Notes: generated by a model not told the origin, from the letters alone. DNA of 54,313 bases from Candidatus Acutalibacter pullistercoris (GCA_019115285.1 DXDU01000068.1:1-54313); one strand, 5' to 3'; shown: positions 14,820 to 22,772, counted from the stretch's first letter. A program made the numbers and translations.

Positions 14820-15318
14820 AACGCATCCTCCTCGCAGGTTTTTTGCTGCTTTCAGTGTACCACATCTCCCCCCAAAAGAAAAGTGCCAACCGCCGCCCGG
14901 GGCCCGGGAAAATCCCGAAAAACCCCATGGACGCCCCCTTTTGAAAGGCGCACAAGCAAGGCAGAAAGAGAACCGTTTCCACCCCTGGGAAAAGAGGCCC
15001 TTTGGGAAGCGATTGGCCCCCATCGCCGCCTTTCCCCACCGGTTCTCCCCGGAGGACCTGACCCGGAATACCGCTTGACCATCCGATGGAACGAGACCTG
15101 GGCTTTGGGGCGCACTACCGGGCGGAGCGCCTGTACCAGGGAAAGCGGCAGGCATTGTACGACTTCCGGCCCTGTCCCGCCCTCGTCAACACCGTATCCG
15201 CTATGGGCAGCACTACCTGCAAGTGCCCCCTGCCCCCTGGCGGGGCTTTTTCCCCTTCTTTTTCCCCCGCCCCCCGCATATAGAGTAAAAGCATTCTGTG
15301 TGGAAAGGGGAATTCGCC

Positions 15319-16326
15319 ATGGCCTCCCTCTCGTATTTCGCCGAATCCCTGGGCCCAGAGCCCACCTCCTTTGTCGCCTCCAACACAGGGGGACTGGGCC
15401 GGTTCGTGTCCCTCTCCGGCTGGCCCGCCCCGGCGGCGGCCGGGGTCCTGTCCCACCTGCTGCGCCAAGGGGAACTGCGGGGGCTGGAGAGCCACAGTCT
15501 CCTCCACCCCCTGGACGGCTCCCTGCAAGGGGTGGTGTTCCCCCAGGTCTCCGCCGGGGCCTACAGCTTTGGCCCCTTCGACCCCCAGGTCCGCAGCGCC
15601 CTGGCCCTGTTCCCCCACCCGGACCTGCTGGGGGCCAGGGCCAGGCTGGCCGCCGCCCGGCGGACGTTCTCCCGGGCCAAGGCCTTTCACGACAGCCAGG
15701 AGAAGCTCTACGGCAAGCACATGGACTGGCGCGCTGCGGACCAGGCCGCCCAGGAACTGCTCCGCCGGCTGCTGGGGGGCAGGAAGCAGGAGGGCCCGGG
15801 GCGGGAAGTCCACCGGTTTTTCGGGGCGGCCCTGCCCCAGGGGGCCGTGGACTGCGTGCCCCAGCTCACCCAGGACCTGAACTGCCGGGTGCTGCTCAAG
15901 GGCCGGCCGGGGACGGGGAAGTCCACCCTGCTGAAAAAGATAGCCCGGGCCGCCAAAGAGGCGGGCTTCGCCGTGGAGCTCTACCACTGCTCCCTGGACC
16001 CCAAGAGCCTGGACCTGGTGGTGGTCCGGGAGCTCTCCTGGTGCGTGCTGGACAGCACCGCCCCCCACGAGTACTTCCCAGAGCGCCCGGGGGATCAGGT
16101 CCTGGACCTGTACCAGCGCTGCGTAGAGCCCGGCACCGACCAGGCCTGGGCCGGGGAGCTCTCCCACCTGGAGGACGCTTACCGGTCCCTGGTCAAGGCC
16201 GCCCGGGGCTTTCTGGAGGAGGCAAGGGAGTCTCTGGAGAAGTTTTACCAGTCCCTGCCCCAGCCGGACCCGGCCCAGCTGGACCAGGCCAAAGAGGAGC
16301 TGTGCGCCGCCCTGCTCCCCCGGTGA
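15319..16326 (+). CDS. PRK06851-like P-loop ATPase
   Basis: C-terminal half has RFFGAALPQG, LKGRPGTGKSTLLKK, YHCSLDPKSLD and DSTAPH. The N-terminal repeat is degenerate. Confidence 0.75.
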   Translation: MASLSYFAESLGPEPTSFVASNTGGLGRFVSLSGWPAPAAAGVLSHLLRQGELRGLESHSLLHPLDGSLQGVVFPQVSAGAYSFGPFDPQVRSALALFPHPDLLGARARLAAARRTFSRAKAFHDSQEKLYGKHMDWRAADQAAQELLRRLLGGRKQEGPGREVHRFFGAALPQGAVDCVPQLTQDLNCRVLLKGRPGTGKSTLLKKIARAAKEAGFAVELYHCSLDPKSLDLVVVRELSWCVLDSTAPHEYFPERPGDQVLDLYQRCVEPGTDQAWAGELSHLEDAYRSLVKAARGFLEEARESLEKFYQSLPQPDPAQLDQAKEELCAALLPR

Positions 16327-16327
16327 C

Positions 16328-16376
16328 AAAAAGAGCCGTCCCCTCTCCCGCCTTGGGAAAGGGAACGGCTCTTTTT
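16328..16376. terminator. Bidirectional terminator shared by the ATPase and the terminase operon
   Basis: AAAAAGAGCCGTCCCCTCTCCC...GGGAAAGGGAACGGCTCTTTTT abuts the terL stop codon. Confidence 0.75.
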
Positions 16377-17767
16377 CAGCTTCTGGTGACAGTGAGGGCG
16401 GGGAAGGCCCCGGCAGGTTCCGCCCAGCCCCCCTGCTCCCGGACCTCCAACGCGATACCTATGGCCATGACGCAGTCGTCGTGGGCCCCGGACTCCGCCT
16501 CCGGCCGGCCCCGGGCGTTTCTCACAAAGGTGAGCATCTCCTCCAGGGTGTCCCTGTCCCGGAGCAGTTCCGGCGTTTGCCGGACAAAGGCGGCAAGCCG
16601 CCCCAATAGCAGGGGCCGGTTGCCGCTGGTGGTGAGAAACCCCAGCTTCCCCCGGGAGGCGCCCTCCTCCCGGCGGCGGTAGAGGAAGGGGTACCCCAGC
16701 CGCTCCAACTCCCGGGCCGGGTAGGTGGAGAAGTTCACCTCCACCGCCACCAGGGCGTCATGGTAGTGACGGCCCAGGCAGTACACCTGCCGGGCGAACA
16801 GGTCCTCCTCCAGCCGCCCCCGGAGCACGCACACCTGCTCCCCGGTGACGGCGCTGACCACCTGGGCCACCCCGTAGTCCGAGCCCTCCCCCGCCGTGTC
16901 CACCCCCACCAGGTACCGGCCGCCGGGCTCCGGCCTCTTGTAGACCTTCACCGGCCCGCTGCCCGGCACCCACTCGGGGAGGGAATCCGGGTCCCCGTTC
17001 CAGACGAACTCCCCCTGGTCCAGGGGTGGGTCCAGCTCCCCCAGCCGTTTTGTGACGGCTTTCTGGTCAAAGTAGCTCTGTCCCAGCACGCCCCACTCCC
17101 CCAGGCAGTACACCCCGTAGTAGTAGGGGTCCGTGTCCTTGTAGCTCTCCAGGGTGGCGGCGTAGTCCGGGTCCAGAAAGTCGTTGTCCCGGTAGGTGGA
17201 GCGCAGCACCAGGGCCCGGGGGTCCTCCCGGTCGAAGAACCTGCGCTTCAGCCAGTGGACGGCGCTGACCGGGTTAAAGGTGAGCACCATCTGCTTCCGG
17301 CTGTTCCCTCCCCGCAGGCGCACATCCAGCTGATTGAAGTCCGCCTCCTGGATCTGGGAGGCCTCCTCCACCCACACGTCCGTCAGCTCCCCCCGGGGAA
17401 AGGTGAGGGACTTGAGCTGTTCCCGGTCACCCAGGCCCCGGAACACCACGGAATTCCCGTTGGTGCACAAGATCCTGGGCTCAGTCTCCCTGCAGGTGAA
17501 CAGGTCCTCCAAGCCCCACTGGCGGATGACCTGGCGGAACAGGGCGTAGGTGCTGTCCCGGTGGGTGTTGGCCGCCGCCCGCACCACCAGCAGGTCGCAC
17601 AAGGGCTTTGCCAGCAGCCGGTAGAGAAACCGCTGGGCGGCGAAGAAGCTCTTCCCCGACCCTGCCCCACCGCAGAGCACCAGGTACCGGTGGTCCTCCT
17701 CCAGCAGCAGGGGCCGGAACTTCCTGTTGAAGTCCTTCCAGGGAAGGCGCACCCTGCGCTCAGTCAT
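16376..17767 (-). CDS. terL: Phage terminase large subunit (PBSX-type ATPase domain plus RNase H-like nuclease domain)
   Basis: Walker A GGAGSGKS, Walker B VWVEE, motif C LTFNP, STYRDN and LGEWG; nuclease motifs VGVDTAGEGSD, AVEVN and HDDCVMA. Confidence 0.92.
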   Translation of the reverse strand: MTERRVRLPWKDFNRKFRPLLLEEDHRYLVLCGGAGSGKSFFAAQRFLYRLLAKPLCDLLVVRAAANTHRDSTYALFRQVIRQWGLEDLFTCRETEPRILCTNGNSVVFRGLGDREQLKSLTFPRGELTDVWVEEASQIQEADFNQLDVRLRGGNSRKQMVLTFNPVSAVHWLKRRFFDREDPRALVLRSTYRDNDFLDPDYAATLESYKDTDPYYYGVYCLGEWGVLGQSYFDQKAVTKRLGELDPPLDQGEFVWNGDPDSLPEWVPGSGPVKVYKRPEPGGRYLVGVDTAGEGSDYGVAQVVSAVTGEQVCVLRGRLEEDLFARQVYCLGRHYHDALVAVEVNFSTYPARELERLGYPFLYRRREEGASRGKLGFLTTSGNRPLLLGRLAAFVRQTPELLRDRDTLEEMLTFVRNARGRPEAESGAHDDCVMAIGIALEVREQGGWAEPAGAFPALTVTRS

Positions 17768-18095
17768 CGGGGCTCCCCGTTAGCTCCACCAGGATCTTCC
17801 CCGCCCCCTGGGGCTTTTCCCGGCCCCCGTAGCCAAAGTCCCGCTGCAAAATGAACTTGGCCCCAGCGGAGGTCTCCTTCTGGTACACCGCCTGAAGGTT
17901 CTCCTCCTCCACCCGGGACATGGCCTGGCGGAGCAGTTCCCCCTCCCAGCCGGGCCCCGCCGCCCGGCGGTCCAGCTCCTTCCTGCCCTCCATGCCCAGG
18001 AACAGGGCAAGGCCCGTCAGGGTGGCCCGGGGGCCCTCTCCCCCGCAGGCCAGAAAATACCGGCGGATCTCCTCCTTCAGCTCCTCCCGCTCCAC
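17760..18095 (-). CDS. terS: Probable terminase small subunit (DNA-packaging protein gp3-like)
   Basis: TLTGLALFLG..R..L, A..RVEE and GAKFIL..FGY pattern typical of gp3-like small subunits. GTG start follows AAGGAGG. Overlaps the terL start (ATGACTGA). Confidence 0.7.
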   Translation of the reverse strand: MEREELKEEIRRYFLACGGEGPRATLTGLALFLGMEGRKELDRRAAGPGWEGELLRQAMSRVEEENLQAVYQKETSAGAKFILQRDFGYGGREKPQGAGKILVELTGSPDD

Positions 18096-18331
18096 AGGCA
18101 GGCCTCCTTCCCCTGTCTTCGGTCCCTGTCCCTTCTGGCGAACAGGATCTGGTTGTGTCGCTGCTCCAGGTACATGGTGTACAGCATGCTGTTCTCCCGC
18201 TTCCACCGCAGCAGCTCTCCCGGGGGAGGCAGCTCCCGGCGGCGCTGGGCCAGCCTCTCCCGCAGGGCCTGGCACTCCCGCCGGGCGGCCTGCTCCATCT
18301 CTCCATAGTCGAACTCCTCTCGCGCGACCAT
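18077..18331 (-). CDS. Hypothetical 84-aa basic helical protein, first gene of the terminase operon
   Basis: ATG follows GGGAGGGG. Overlaps the terS start and lies directly behind the leftward promoter. Confidence 0.65.
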   Translation of the reverse strand: MVAREEFDYGEMEQAARRECQALRERLAQRRRELPPPGELLRWKRENSMLYTMYLEQRHNQILFARRDRDRRQGKEACLWSGRS

Positions 18332-18395
18332 AACGTCCCCTCCCTTTATTGACAACTTTTTTAAACAAAGATGGCGTTTTGTCATCTCGTTTTTT

Positions 18396-18424
18396 ATTAT
18401 AGCGGCGAATTGTCATTTCGTCAA
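18396..18424 (-). promoter_or_regulatory. Leftward sigma-A promoter (terminase operon)
   Basis: TTGACG (rc of 18419-18424), 17 bp, TATAAT (rc of 18396-18401). Confidence 0.75.
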
Positions 18425-18454
18425 GATGGCTCCCAAAGAAATTGACAATTCGCC
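18404..18454. promoter_or_regulatory. Putative repressor operator sites (perfect 12-bp inverted repeat)
   Basis: GGCGAATTGTCA (18404-18415) and TGACAATTCGCC (18443-18454); related site GGCGTTTTGTCA at 18373-18384. Confidence 0.6.
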
Positions 18455-18470
18455 AATCAGGGGGTATACT
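18442..18470 (+). promoter_or_regulatory. Rightward sigma-A promoter (repressor)
   Basis: TTGACA-17 bp-TATACT. Confidence 0.75.
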
Positions 18471-18511
18471 ATTCCCAGAACACCCGGCCTCGCCGGGAAA
18501 GGAGGAGGACC

Positions 18512-19225
18512 ATGGGATTTTCTGACACGCTGCGCGCCGCCAGGCAGGAAAAGGGCCTCACCCAACAGGAGGTGGCCCGGGTCCTGGAGGTGGACAAGAC
18601 CACCTACTCCGGCTACGAGACAGGCCGCCGCCAGCCGGACGTGGGCAAACTGCAGAAGCTGGCCCGGCTCTTAGAGCTTTCGGGGGACCAGCTGCTGGGC
18701 CTGCCCCCCCGGGCCGCCAACGCCCTGACCCCGGAGGAGCTGGGGAAGCTCAAACGCTACCGGCTGCTGGATGTCCACGGCCGGGAGCTGGTGGACCTGG
18801 TCCTGGAGAAGGAGTACCAGCGCATGACCCGCCGGGAGGAGAAGGAGGAAAAGGGCTGGGTGACCTACATCAACTGTTACGACCTGGCGGTCTCCGCCGG
18901 CACCGGCGAGCCCTGGAGCGGCACCGGCTACAAGACCCGGCTGGAGATCCCCCAGCAGCAGGTGCCGGAAAACGCCCACTACTGCGCCAGAGTCAACGGG
19001 GACAGCATGGAGCCGGCCTACAAAGACGGGGACATCGTCTTTGTGGAGCGGGTGGAGGGCTGCGTCCAGGAGGGGGAAGTGGGGATTTTCCTCTTAAACG
19101 GCGAGGGCTACATCAAGCGCCTGGGGGACCGGGAGCTGCTCTCCCTGAACCCCAAGTACGGGCCCATCGCCCTCCACGACTACGACGACTTCCGCTGCCA
19201 AGGCCGGGTCCTGGGCAAACTTTGA
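18512..19225 (+). CDS. CI/LexA-like repressor (XRE HTH plus S24 autopeptidase)
   Basis: HTH LTQQEVARVLEVDKTTYSGYETGRRQP; Ala-Gly cleavage site VSAGTG; catalytic Ser in GDSMEP and Lys in YIKRL; AAGGAGG RBS. Confidence 0.9.
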   Translation: MGFSDTLRAARQEKGLTQQEVARVLEVDKTTYSGYETGRRQPDVGKLQKLARLLELSGDQLLGLPPRAANALTPEELGKLKRYRLLDVHGRELVDLVLEKEYQRMTRREEKEEKGWVTYINCYDLAVSAGTGEPWSGTGYKTRLEIPQQQVPENAHYCARVNGDSMEPAYKDGDIVFVERVEGCVQEGEVGIFLLNGEGYIKRLGDRELLSLNPKYGPIALHDYDDFRCQGRVLGKL

Positions 19226-19229
19226 GCGG

Positions 19230-20010
19230 TCCGTAGCCGGACGGGCCAGGAAAATCCCTCCGCTGAAGGACGCTCCGGGATTTTAGGGCGGGTTGACCGA
19301 ACCTGGGGCGGGTTCCGCTTCCACTTCACCTGCGGATTCGGAAAGCTTTATGGGCCCCACCCCCGTCTCGCCTGCCGGGTGAGCAAGATTTGTGAAGCCC
19401 ACCCCCTGCCCCCTCCCGCGCCCAGACCATAGCGAAGGCCATTCCCTCGCTGGCGCGGGAGGGGGATTCTCTTTTATTATTTTAATAGGATTTTCAAGGG
19501 GCTTCGCCCCTTGGACCCCCATGGTAGATAACCTCCCTTGAGGTAGAGAGTTAAATATGAGGGGGTTGTCAAAGGGGGGAGCTATCGCCCCCCTTTGGAA
19601 TGAGATTATAGAATATACTCCCCCCTCCCGTACCGCTAGGGTACAGGCTATATCCCGCTGGCCTTACGGGAGGGGGGTGAGCGAGCGCCGGTGGCGCTCT
19701 GCCGCGAACCGGTCTCAGCTCCCGCTTCGGTCGGCGCTGAACGGTCGCCAGTGGCGACCAGCGCCCGAGCCGCCAGGCGAGACAGCGTCAGCTCCCCCCT
19801 TTGGAATGAGATTATAGATATTGTATCCCCCGCCAACGATTACCTCTCAGTAAATTTACGGGAGGGGGGCAGGGGGGTGGGCATCACCCGTCCCGAGCAA
19901 GGCAACAGGCGGGAGCAGCGGAATACCGCCTGGGTGGGGTAAACTCGCCCTAAAATCCCGGCGGGCGAAGCCCAGAGGGATTTTTCTGGCCTGCGGTGCC
20001 AACCGCCACA
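19230..20010. repeat. Intergenic mosaic repeat island 3
   Basis: AAAATCCC hairpins (19251, 19952), core unit 19398-19680 and module A (19675-19768). Confidence 0.9.
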
Positions 20011-20037
20011 GCGGGCTGGGCACCTCCAAAAACATGC

Positions 20038-20066
20038 TTGACAAGCGCTGATTTTTGTGCTATAGT
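20038..20066 (+). promoter_or_regulatory. Sigma-A promoter of the T-box/trpB2 transcript
   Basis: TTGACA-17 bp-TATAGT with extended -10 TG. Confidence 0.75.
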
Positions 20067-20074
20067 GTGCACAA

Positions 20075-20362
20075 ATCGAGAAGACGTGAAACCGGTGACC
20101 GGGACGAGTACCCTTTCACAACTGTCTTCCTAGCGAACCGCGGGCGGTGAGAGCGCGGCAGGACAGGGAGAGGGGAATGGACCCGCGAGGGCGGACCGAA
20201 CAAGGGGTGGTTGCTCCTTTAGTAGGGAAGACGGATGCTGACCGTTACAGCAGCTAGCGCATGGAAGTGCGTGAACGAGGCGCGTCCCTACGGGGGCGAA
20301 TTTAGGTGGCACCGCAGATACGGCGTATCTGTCCTAGAAACTAGGACGGATGCGCTTTTTTC
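20075..20362 (+). promoter_or_regulatory. T-box riboswitch, Trp specifier
   Basis: Stem I AGCGA..GGTGAGA motifs; specifier loop GAA-TGG-AC (UGG=Trp); T-box AATTTAGGTGGCACCGC (20299-20315); terminator GCGTATCTGTCCTAG-AAA-CTAGGACGGATGCGC-TTTTTT. Confidence 0.88.
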
Positions 20363-20408
20363 ATAGTCTTTTCGAACTACACTCTATCCCTGGAAAGGAA
20401 GGTATCCC

Positions 20409-21782
20409 ATGAGCAAACACGAGATCCCCTACAAGATCTATCTGGAAGAAAGCGAGCTGCCTACCGCCTGGTACAACCTGCGCGCCGACATGAAGAACAA
20501 GCCCGCTCCCCTGTTAAACCCCGCCACCCACCAGCCCATGGGCTTCGAGGACCTGCGGCCTGTGTTCTGCGACGAGCTCATCAAGCAGGAGCTGGACAAC
20601 ACCACCCCCTATTTCGACATCCCCGGGGAGATTCTGGACTTCTACAAGATGTACCGGCCCTCTCCCCTCATTCACGCGGAGTTTCTGGAGAAGGCCCTGG
20701 GCACCCCCGCCAAGATCTACTATAAGTTCGAGGGCAACAACACCTCCGGCTCTCACAAGCTGAACTCCGCCATCGCCCAGGCCTACTACGCCAAGAAGCA
20801 GGGCCTCAAGGGCGTCACCACCGAGACAGGCGCCGGCCAGTGGGGCACCGCCCTGTCCATGGCCTGCTCCTTCTTCGACCTGGACTGCAAGGTCTACATG
20901 GTAAAGGTCAGCTACGAGCAGAAGCCCTTCCGCCGGGAGGTCATGCGCACCTACGGCGCCTCTGTCACCCCCTCCCCCTCGGAGACCACCGTCGTGGGCC
21001 GGAAGATCTTAGAGGCCCACCCGGGCACCAGCGGCTCTCTGGGCTGCGCCATCTCCGAGGCTGTGGAAGTGGCCACCGGCCTGCCGGGCTACCGCTACGT
21101 GCTGGGATCGGTCTTAAACCAGGTGCTGCTGCACCAGTCCGTCATCGGCCTGGAGACCCAGGCAGCCCTGGAGAAATACGACATCCATCCCGACATCATC
21201 ATCGGCTGCGCCGGGGGCGGCTCCAACCTGGGCGGCCTCATCTCCCCCTTCATGCGGGATAAGATCCTGGGCAAGGCCGATTACCGCATCATCGCCGTAG
21301 AGCCCGCCTCCTGCCCCTCCTTCACTCGGGGCAAGTACGCCTACGACTACTGCGACACCGGCATGGTGTGCCCGTTGTCCAAGATGTACACCCTGGGCTC
21401 CAACTTCATCCCCTCCGCCAACCACGCCGGCGGCCTGCGGTACCACGGCATGAGCTCCGTGCTCTCCCAGCTGTACGACGACGGCCTGATGGAGGCCCGG
21501 GCCGTGGAGCAGACCAGTGTGTTCCAGGCGGCGGAGCTCTTCGCCCGAGTGGAGGGCACCCTGCCCGCTCCCGAGAGCAGCCACGCCATTCGCGCCGCCA
21601 TCGACGAGGCCTTAAAGTGCAAAGAGACCGGCGAGGCCAAGACCATCGTCTTCGGCCTGACGGGCACCGGCTACTTCGACATGACCGCCTACCAGAAGTT
21701 CAACGACGGTGCGATGACTGACTACATCCCCACCGACGAGGAGCTGCAGGCCAGTTTCGCCCAGCTGCCCAAAGTGGACTGA
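20409..21782 (+). CDS. trpB2: TrpB2-type tryptophan synthase beta-like PLP enzyme
   Basis: Motifs SGSHKLNSA (PLP Lys), TETGAGQWG, GGGSNLGG, HAGGLRYHG and PAPESSHAI. The long N-terminus LPTAWYN is typical of TrpB2. Confidence 0.9.
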   Translation: MSKHEIPYKIYLEESELPTAWYNLRADMKNKPAPLLNPATHQPMGFEDLRPVFCDELIKQELDNTTPYFDIPGEILDFYKMYRPSPLIHAEFLEKALGTPAKIYYKFEGNNTSGSHKLNSAIAQAYYAKKQGLKGVTTETGAGQWGTALSMACSFFDLDCKVYMVKVSYEQKPFRREVMRTYGASVTPSPSETTVVGRKILEAHPGTSGSLGCAISEAVEVATGLPGYRYVLGSVLNQVLLHQSVIGLETQAALEKYDIHPDIIIGCAGGGSNLGGLISPFMRDKILGKADYRIIAVEPASCPSFTRGKYAYDYCDTGMVCPLSKMYTLGSNFIPSANHAGGLRYHGMSSVLSQLYDDGLMEARAVEQTSVFQAAELFARVEGTLPAPESSHAIRAAIDEALKCKETGEAKTIVFGLTGTGYFDMTAYQKFNDGAMTDYIPTDEELQASFAQLPKVD

Positions 21783-22772
21783 GGCGCGTGCCCGCGCGGG
21801 GCGGGAAAATCCCTCCGCTGAGGGGCGCTCCGAGGCGGTTGGCACCGCGGGCCAGGAAAATCCCTTTGCACTTCGTGCGCCGGGATTTTAGGGCGAGCTT
21901 ACCCCGCCCAGGCGGTATTGCCCGCTCTTGCCTGCCGGGCGGAGAGGCCGTGTGAGGCCCACCCCCTGCCCCCTCCCGCGCCCATACCAAGGAGATATAA
22001 ATTCCCTTGCAGGCGCGGGAGGGGGAGTCTGATCTATAATCTCATTCCAAAGGGGGGAGACATCCGTCTCCCCCCTTTGATAACCCCCCACAGTTTACAG
22101 CTTTCGGCCTCAGAAGTGGCTATCTGTCATAAGGGGTCCAAGGGGACGGAGTCCCCTTGAAAATCCTATTAAAATAATTAAAAAAGAGAATCCCCCTCCC
22201 GCGCCTGTAAGGTTAGATATACCACCTAGGTCTGGGCGCGGGAGGGGGCAGGGGGTGGGAGCGCAGATAACTTGCCCCTCAGCAGGCGAGACCAGAGGGT
22301 GGGCTTTATAAGGCTTCCCCACAGGCAGGTGAGACTTGGCTCTCCCTCTGGGAGAGCTGGCACGACGAAGTCGTGACTGAGAGGGGCTGCCTTCAAAGGG
22401 GTTCGCAAAGGGGGATGAAATCCCACTTTGGAATTAAACTATAGTACTTTCTCCCCCTCCCGTACTGCAAAGGTGCGGATTATAGCTTTTGTCCCCTTAC
22501 GGGAGGGGGTGAGCGAGCGCCGGTGGCGCTCTGCCGCGAACCGGTCTCAGCTCCCGCTTCGGTCGGCGCTGAACGGTCGCCACTGGCGACCAGCGCCCGA
22601 GCCGGCAAGCGAGACCAGGGGGTGAACACCGCAATGCCGCGGGAAAGCCGCCCCAAAATCCCGGAGCGTCCTTTGCGGAGGGATTTTATTGCCCAGCGCG
22701 GGCACGCGCCGGCAGGCGAGACCAGGGGGTGGGCTTGTATAAAGCTTTCCCCCGACAGGCGAGGGTGCGCCC
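21783..22772. repeat. Intergenic mosaic repeat island 4, including a 302-bp unit with 27-bp perfect terminal inverted repeats (21958-22259)
   Basis: TIR CCCACCCCCTGCCCCCTCCCGCGCCCA at 21958-21984 and its reverse complement at 22233-22259; modules G (22338-22384) and A (22506-22600); AAAATCCC hairpins. Confidence 0.9.

Follow-up and report, generated by a model that had tools for sequence, protein, structure and literature searches.

PBSX of Bacillus subtilis occupies a single uninterrupted locus that includes sheath, tube and tape-measure genes. Among phages and gene transfer agents (GTAs), it is usual to regard terminase and portal as a single module that co-evolves, and trees of the large terminase (TerL) are used for classification. 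In the accessible parts of the respective papers, the terminase of RcGTA is placed in the core cluster (PMC6854486), FpGTA I of Faecalibacterium prausnitzii has terS-terL, portal and capsid in one operon (PMC12946183), and the terminases of the mouse-gut Coprocola/Butyricicoccaceae candidate GTAs lie inside the core cluster (bioRxiv 10.64898/2026.07.08.737213). The window analysed here, i.e., the whole stretch of 54,313 nucleotides (nt) from Candidatus Acutalibacter pullistercoris (GCA_019115285.1 DXDU01000068.1:1-54313), is the entire contig C9 of a 2.02-Mb genome (G000; 156 contigs, 87% complete). It carries a repressor-controlled terminase operon, orf84-terS-terL, at a locus separate from portal and capsid. 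This operon probably supplies the switch and the packaging motor of a domesticated three-locus GTA-like element, with the head genes on contig C70 and the lysis genes on contig C111, and the best reading of the gene content is that the element was built from two phage ancestors. The features on which this argument turns are as follows (lengths in amino acids, aa; HTH, helix-turn-helix).

Window 16376-17767, minus strand: terL, large terminase (ATPase and nuclease), 463 aa, Terminase_3 E=2.9e-51.
Window 16379-16435, minus strand: TerL C-terminal tail, residues 445-463, predicted portal-docking segment, without the motif of the P22-portal lineage.
Window 17760-18095, minus strand: terS, gp3-like small terminase, 111 aa, GP3_package E=3.7e-9.
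Window 18077-18331, minus strand: orf84, 84 aa, helical hairpin, candidate regulator.
Window 18512-19225, plus strand: CI-like XRE-S24 repressor, 237 aa, HTH_3 and Peptidase_S24.
G000 contig C70 5755-14354, minus strand: terminase-less head/baseplate cluster (L091), from profile matches.

All 58 Acutalibacter genomes of the genus set were searched for TerL and portal types. TerL is called native when it lies directly before a C70-type portal, and orphan when it belongs to the window lineage and no portal adjoins it. The C70-type portal was found in 49 of the 58 genomes and a P22-type portal in eight of the remaining nine, with no genome having both; in the ninth (G071), part of a native terS-terL is found at the end of a contig. 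Ten of the 49 C70-portal genomes have a native TerL directly before the portal (64-100% identity to the G003 query; six seen in loci, four placed by coordinates) and no orphan TerL match. The other 39 have no native TerL beside the portal, and 38 of them carry a full-length orphan TerL, with a contig-edge fragment in G006. This complementary pattern, native beside the portal or orphan, holds in 58 of 58 genomes. Orphan TerLs are 56-67% identical to the window TerL within the genus (100% for itself), and the window lineage is matched in 45 of the 58 genomes, among them seven of the eight P22-type genomes, the eighth (G060, 84% complete) having no match. Homologues of the C70-type cluster occur in two further families, where clusters that include a terminase are flanked by housekeeping genes. 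In the homologous clusters inspected outside the genus, five of five, the portal is still preceded by the native terS-terL; a native terminase beside the portal is therefore likely to be the ancestral state. Three capsid matches opened from the cultured-phage collection were likewise clusters with their own terminase, on chromosomal fragments with host genes.

The window TerL lineage otherwise precedes P22-type portals, as in G030, G016 and viral contigs. The closest TerL relatives with an adjoining head gene have P22-type portals, and in G070 an orf84-like gene, terS, terL and a P22-type head form one run. The window motor therefore appears to come from a P22-type element and the head from another, and the terminase is likely foreign to the C70 head that it likely serves. 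No match was found in G000 to the P22-type head genes of G030 or of G004/G013/G016. In 300 genomes of the family, the lineage gave five matches outside the genus, none in a genome with a C70-type portal; one of these five genomes has an adjoining P22-type portal and four have a further tail type. A TerL match covering 80% of the protein was found in none of 50,697 cultured-phage records. The window TerL lineage also occurs in compact clusters of two other genera of the family (L254-L257; G095, G354, G252, G098), with a different, conserved tail. A second element, which has a P22-type portal and is GTA-like or a prophage, is present in eight genus genomes in contiguous, rearranged or split form (loci L071-L076, L179 and L182; G004, G013, G016, G030, G048, G070); G013, G064 and G069 likewise have its terminase by itself, preceded by the repressor and a RinA-like gene.

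The C-terminus of TerL docks on the portal in T3, lambda, SPP1 and P22, according to the accessible parts of two papers (PMC13595956; PMC3592435). In the lineage studied here, the motif W-x-x-DM-x-x-[DE]-[YW] follows the last nuclease helix in 13 of 14 P22-portal-linked TerLs and in none of 26 orphans. Orphan tails are short, and 18 of the 26 exceed shuffles against native tails at p<=0.05; natives among themselves did so in 8 of 11 cases and the controls in 1 of 14 and 0 of 6. Because TerL C-termini bind portals in several phages, we infer that the orphan tail docks on the C70-type portal. A complex prediction with three portal copies and a 36-residue TerL tail scored 0.03; it gave no usable model and counts neither way. 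The terL of G009 is 98.8% identical over 1290 nt to that of the P22-portal viral contig L113, yet has an orphan-type tail.

The C70 cluster encodes a portal (phrog_30703, E=1e-118), protease-like and decoration proteins, a major capsid protein (phrog_3922, E=1e-80; also PF25209, with no matching NCBIfam model), two small proteins without family and the baseplate hub, wedge and J proteins; the first domain of one cluster protein has a tail-terminator fold, and no terminase is present. In relatives the cluster is flanked by TM2-like genes on one side and, in many genomes, by hflX on the other. It was found via weak PF04860 hits in relatives, standard portal models having missed it in G000 (PF05133 without match; PF04860 none at E<=0.001, with E=0.021 in the C70 scan); an earlier interpretation of the locus, as a terminase and lysis module lacking a capsid, was then abandoned. 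The lysis operon on C111 consists of a GH25 endolysin gene and two holin-like genes. Relatives have holin genes after terL, in many cases together with an endolysin of GH25 or amidase type; of the 20 orphan loci with sequence beyond terL, 18 show this holin arrangement and none has a portal there. The exceptions are G000 and its nearest relative G073, both of which have a separate palindrome-led lysis operon. The palindrome concerned, AAGTTK-N12-MAACTT, lies upstream of the cluster in most of the genomes inspected, G019 and G024 being without an exact copy; G000 and G073 have just two exact sites each, one ahead of the cluster and one ahead of the lysis operon. The neighbourhoods on C70 and C111 are host genes, and the element has no replication or integration genes at its loci. 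Phage-derived head, packaging and lysis genes are host-encoded at several loci, as is expected of a GTA.

A preliminary description of the window, made from its sequence alone, had regarded the terminase operon as standing alone. This is correct for contig C9, where no head, tail, lysis or integrase PHROG match (E<=1e-12) was obtained for the 39 other called genes, the ATPase-like neighbour of terL being covered by a separate profile scan. It does not hold for the genome, given the clusters on C70 and C111. The same description had proposed, among other roles, the packaging arm of a split GTA and a search for orphan portal and capsid genes elsewhere; the C70 cluster, together with the lysis operon, supports the packaging-arm proposal.

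Three further observations concern the cluster and its palindrome. At G000 C70 5560-5760, where many relatives carry a 161-aa distal gene, there is a duplicated end of the last baseplate gene with a terminator. In L191:12639-13499 (G053), the portal end, protease and capsid are deleted from the cluster and terL is intact elsewhere, making this strain a possible non-producer. A third copy of the palindrome, seen in one native-type genome (L170:776-1483; G003:C42), precedes a 235-aa gene without NCBIfam match, the product of which presumably resembles the N-terminus of a phage replication initiator.

The operon itself reads as intact. TerL scores above the TIGR01547 cut-off and has no internal stops; Walker A (residue 33), Walker B (131), motif C (163) and the nuclease acids (near 290, 343 and 430-431) fall in columns that are invariant across 23 aligned orthologues. 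The genes orf84, terS and terL overlap by 19 and 8 nt, and the divergent repressor retains both domains, with an Ala-Gly site plus Ser/Lys motifs. TerS, with a segment that we take to be HTH-like, is 111-124 aa long, vs 126 aa in viral contig L113. For orf84 no family match was found in Pfam, PHROGs or NCBIfam, and its predicted fold, a helical hairpin (predicted local distance difference test 89), has no PDB match at E<=0.001. The control elements are given below.

Window 16328-16376, unstranded: hairpin of 22 bp, likely bidirectional terminator, with U-runs on both strands, beginning at the terL stop codon.
Window 18396-18424, minus strand: sigma-70-type promoter toward orf84-terS-terL, 11/12 match.
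Window 18442-18470, plus strand: sigma-70-type promoter toward the repressor, 11/12 match.
Window 18372-18455 (starts 18372, 18403, 18411, 18443), unstranded: 13-bp imperfect palindromes, operator-like, of putative function.

The hairpin folds at -40.4 kcal/mol (z=-6.6; equal fold in 0 of 200 shuffles), and the back-to-back promoters and operator-like palindromes are conserved in nine aligned genomes. The four genes have a GC content at third codon positions of 0.88-0.91, the genome median being 0.90. An assembly join at terL is excluded by DNA contigs from other studies: the neighbour-terL junction is bridged by X8 (15526-16486) and X4 (16216-17111) and the terL-repressor junction by X8 (17082-19215) and X4 (17334-19258), and in G073 the module occupies the identical site. 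What the preliminary description had said of the locus, namely an intact repressor facing a coupled operon, unbroken TerL motifs, a bidirectional terminator (likely) abutting the terL stop, host-like coding style and no other phage gene nearby, is borne out, and the assembly join that it named as a possible objection was not found.

The repressor-orf84 pair is present without a terminase in four of five native-type genomes searched, and therefore may serve the head cluster too. In one subclade (L024:8568-8888 and relatives), the orf84-like gene and terS are separated by an additional gene of about 105 aa, and the N-terminal domain of the repressor is of another kind. Beyond the repressor, window 19226-20050 contains intergenic repeats resembling repetitive extragenic palindromes or miniature inverted-repeat transposable elements (284 blastn hits over 74 genome contigs). 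Window 20060-20360 is a long leader with a terminator-like hairpin ahead of a trpB-like gene; by eye we take it to resemble a T-box, and Rfam gave no match at gathering score. No Rfam match was obtained within window 15000-22500.

In the rpoB/C nucleotide tree (53 genomes), the 35 orphan-type genomes form one clade; in the protein tree the orphan type needs two changes with weak support, which is compatible with one origin. Native and P22 types are interleaved, and the native-type genomes as one clade were rejected (approximately unbiased (AU) test, p=0.0015); the orphan-lineage terminase was therefore probably lost on more than one occasion in genomes that retained the native one. Of 12 splits of the host tree for 15 genomes, ten are shared by the cluster tree and nine by the TerL tree. 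The ratio of nonsynonymous to synonymous substitution (dN/dS) for terL was 0.04-0.24 in nine pairs, no full-length TerL match contains a stop, and among the 23 within-species differences listed for the four genes, a partial listing, 15 are synonymous. Vertical inheritance under purifying selection was found in general, with the mosaic terL of G009, the deletion in G053 and the higher ratios of G000/G073 as exceptions. The suggestion that the module is domesticated is supported by these data (lineage in 45 of 58 genomes, 9 of 12 host splits, dN/dS 0.04-0.54).

A fuller scheme may be drawn from these genes, to which we give about an even chance: a hybrid GTA from two unrelated tamed phages, in which the switch and motor of a P22-type element were re-targeted by swapping only a docking tail of about 20 residues, and which became fixed across about 39 Acutalibacter species while the motor body was still refreshed by recombination with circulating phages and the tail was kept. 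For the probable GTA-like element itself, the inferred course of events is as follows. An ancestor would have held two tamed phages. One lineage would then have lost the terminase of the first element and the head of the second, and kept the switch, terminase and (usually) lysis genes of the second. The TerL tail would have been grafted or have converged so as to dock on the C70-type portal. Inactivation of the CI-like repressor by self-cleavage, likely triggered by RecA, would allow transcription of orf84-terS-terL, DNA-damage induction being suggested by the S24 domain alone. Some regulator acting at AAGTTK-N12-MAACTT would turn on the head and lysis genes. TerS-TerL would then cut chromosomal DNA and package it into small heads fitted with a baseplate and lacking both sheath and tape measure; the cell would lyse.

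Several points weigh against the GTA-like reading. The element is known here from genes alone; particles, packaged DNA, transfer and induction are unobserved. Contigs from RNA libraries in two studies overlap parts of both loci; they may hold DNA and were not used as support for transcription. Of the 23 sequencing runs listed, none carries a virome label. The palindrome is absent from the C9 operon, which leaves co-regulation of the loci no more than a possibility. The tail of G000 is below significance against native tails (z=1.1, p=0.16), eight of the 26 orphan tails have no significant native resemblance, and four of the 26 come from loci typed by neighbourhood only, 22 of the 39 orphan-type terL loci having been inspected. 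The G009 mosaic could be the product of recombination or an assembly chimera. As the orphan type likely arose once, the 39 genomes do not count as independent cases. Other native-family TerL homologues, at 36-55%, are present in six orphan- or P22-type genomes; the two that were inspected adjoin SPP1-type portals. G000 lacks a match to the 161-aa distal gene, and G053 keeps an intact terL despite its deletion from portal end to capsid. The pair G000/G073 has a terL dN/dS of 0.54, with a long branch for the G000 TerL, vs 0.16 for rpoC and 0.25 for HflX, although the ratios of host genes are raised in this pair as well. Finally, the HTH-like segment and near-viral length of TerS suggest that packaging may be non-random.

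The same pairing of motor and head might instead produce PBSX-like killer or decoy particles that package host DNA without delivering it. Control by an S24-type repressor and a contractile-type baseplate would suit such particles, which we nevertheless consider unlikely. The absence of sheath (PF04984) and tape measure (PF10145) cuts both ways. Neither was found in G000 (87% complete), G042 (single contig), G059 or G073, four of the five genomes searched, and G021 has both at other places. The injection route is therefore unclear, in keeping with particles that do not deliver. Tailocin killing, though, requires sheath and tube, and no sheath was found; purifying selection on the portal, the capsid and the catalytic residues of the motor also speaks against it. 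The same doubt about delivery is raised for FpGTA in the accessible part of its description (PMC12946183).

Two further roles enlarge on readings offered in the preliminary description and fit worse. In the first, the operon would hijack phages with P22-type portals, whether newly arriving or already resident, and either fill their capsids with host DNA or disrupt their packaging. Phage-like elements with the window TerL lineage do exist (viral contigs L094, L113 and L258); they nest among the orphans (AU p=0.003), and viral-contig and orphan terL appear to exchange alleles. This role is quite improbable all the same, as the P22-portal-linked tail motif is lost in 26 of 26 orphans and retention of terL tracks the terminase-less resident cluster. 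In the second, a repressor-controlled suicide module, the terminase nuclease and the holin and endolysin would destroy the cell and set DNA free, capsids playing no part. The holin, with or without endolysin, directly after terL in 18 of 20 orphan loci agrees with this, as does terL kept in G053 although its capsid gene is deleted. We regard it as highly improbable, since it leaves unexplained both the tail resemblance and the absence of orphans exactly where the cluster has its own terminase, and the ATPase motif (Walker A) is invariant in 21 of 21 copies. A slowly decaying, functionless prophage remnant, to which the long branch and dN/dS of 0.54 in G000/G073 might point, is scarcely credible and largely refuted already by the lack of stops in full-length matches, the low ratios in the nine other pairs, the synonymous majority among the listed within-species differences and the conserved promoter and operator positions.

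If the hybrid GTA is real, a foreign motor serves a resident head genus-wide, and compatibility of motor and head may hinge on a short swappable tail; three tail/portal classes are on offer for testing this. The results further indicate a widespread GTA-like cluster, so far undescribed, among gut Clostridia: 49 of the 58 genomes of the genus have it, and homologues occur in two further families. Search tools built on terminase and capsid occurring together would overlook such an element. Native and hybrid forms coexist in one genus with a cultured member, A. muris KB18 (PMC10197239), which makes the scheme directly testable.

The element differs from an intact temperate prophage, having neither contiguous terL-portal-capsid-tail genes nor an integrase, and from capsid-forming phage satellites (phage-inducible chromosomal islands), having no integrase, replication module or patchy mobile presence. 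In the full-text literature searched, outside of which lay most subscription papers and the supplements of the bioRxiv preprint, no Acutalibacter GTA or displaced GTA terminase is described, and the accessible parts of two OMM12 virome papers make no mention of an A. muris GTA (PMC10197239, PMC10892684). PBSX is likewise a repressor-controlled defective phage in a Firmicute (PMC12946183, in part) with similar baseplate gene types, and the PBSX-family TerL model recognizes both TerL types found here; it differs in that three loci are involved here and no sheath or tape measure was found, the two genes that mark PBSX-like or R-type tailocins being absent from G000, G042, G059 and G073. RcGTA/CcGTA of Alphaproteobacteria are also multi-locus and vertically inherited, with host-like codon use and no replication or integration genes; the present element has its terminase, of another phage lineage and controlled by a CI-like switch, at a separate locus, and its TerS appears to keep an HTH-like segment, whereas the TerS of RcGTA has no DNA-binding domain. 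The Coprocola/Butyricicoccaceae candidates, judged from gene content, have separate core and lysis clusters as here, and the accessible text names Acutalibacteraceae only as a share of the packaged DNA (bioRxiv 10.64898/2026.07.08.737213). FpGTA, in the part of its description available, has a capsid labelled N4-gp56 family and is set apart from the C70 type by this label and by gene order; it resembles the Acutalibacter element in belonging to gut Clostridia, in its tamed phage genes in more than one operon and near-ubiquity in the genus, and in having no replication genes and lysis genes apart from the head genes (PMC12946183).

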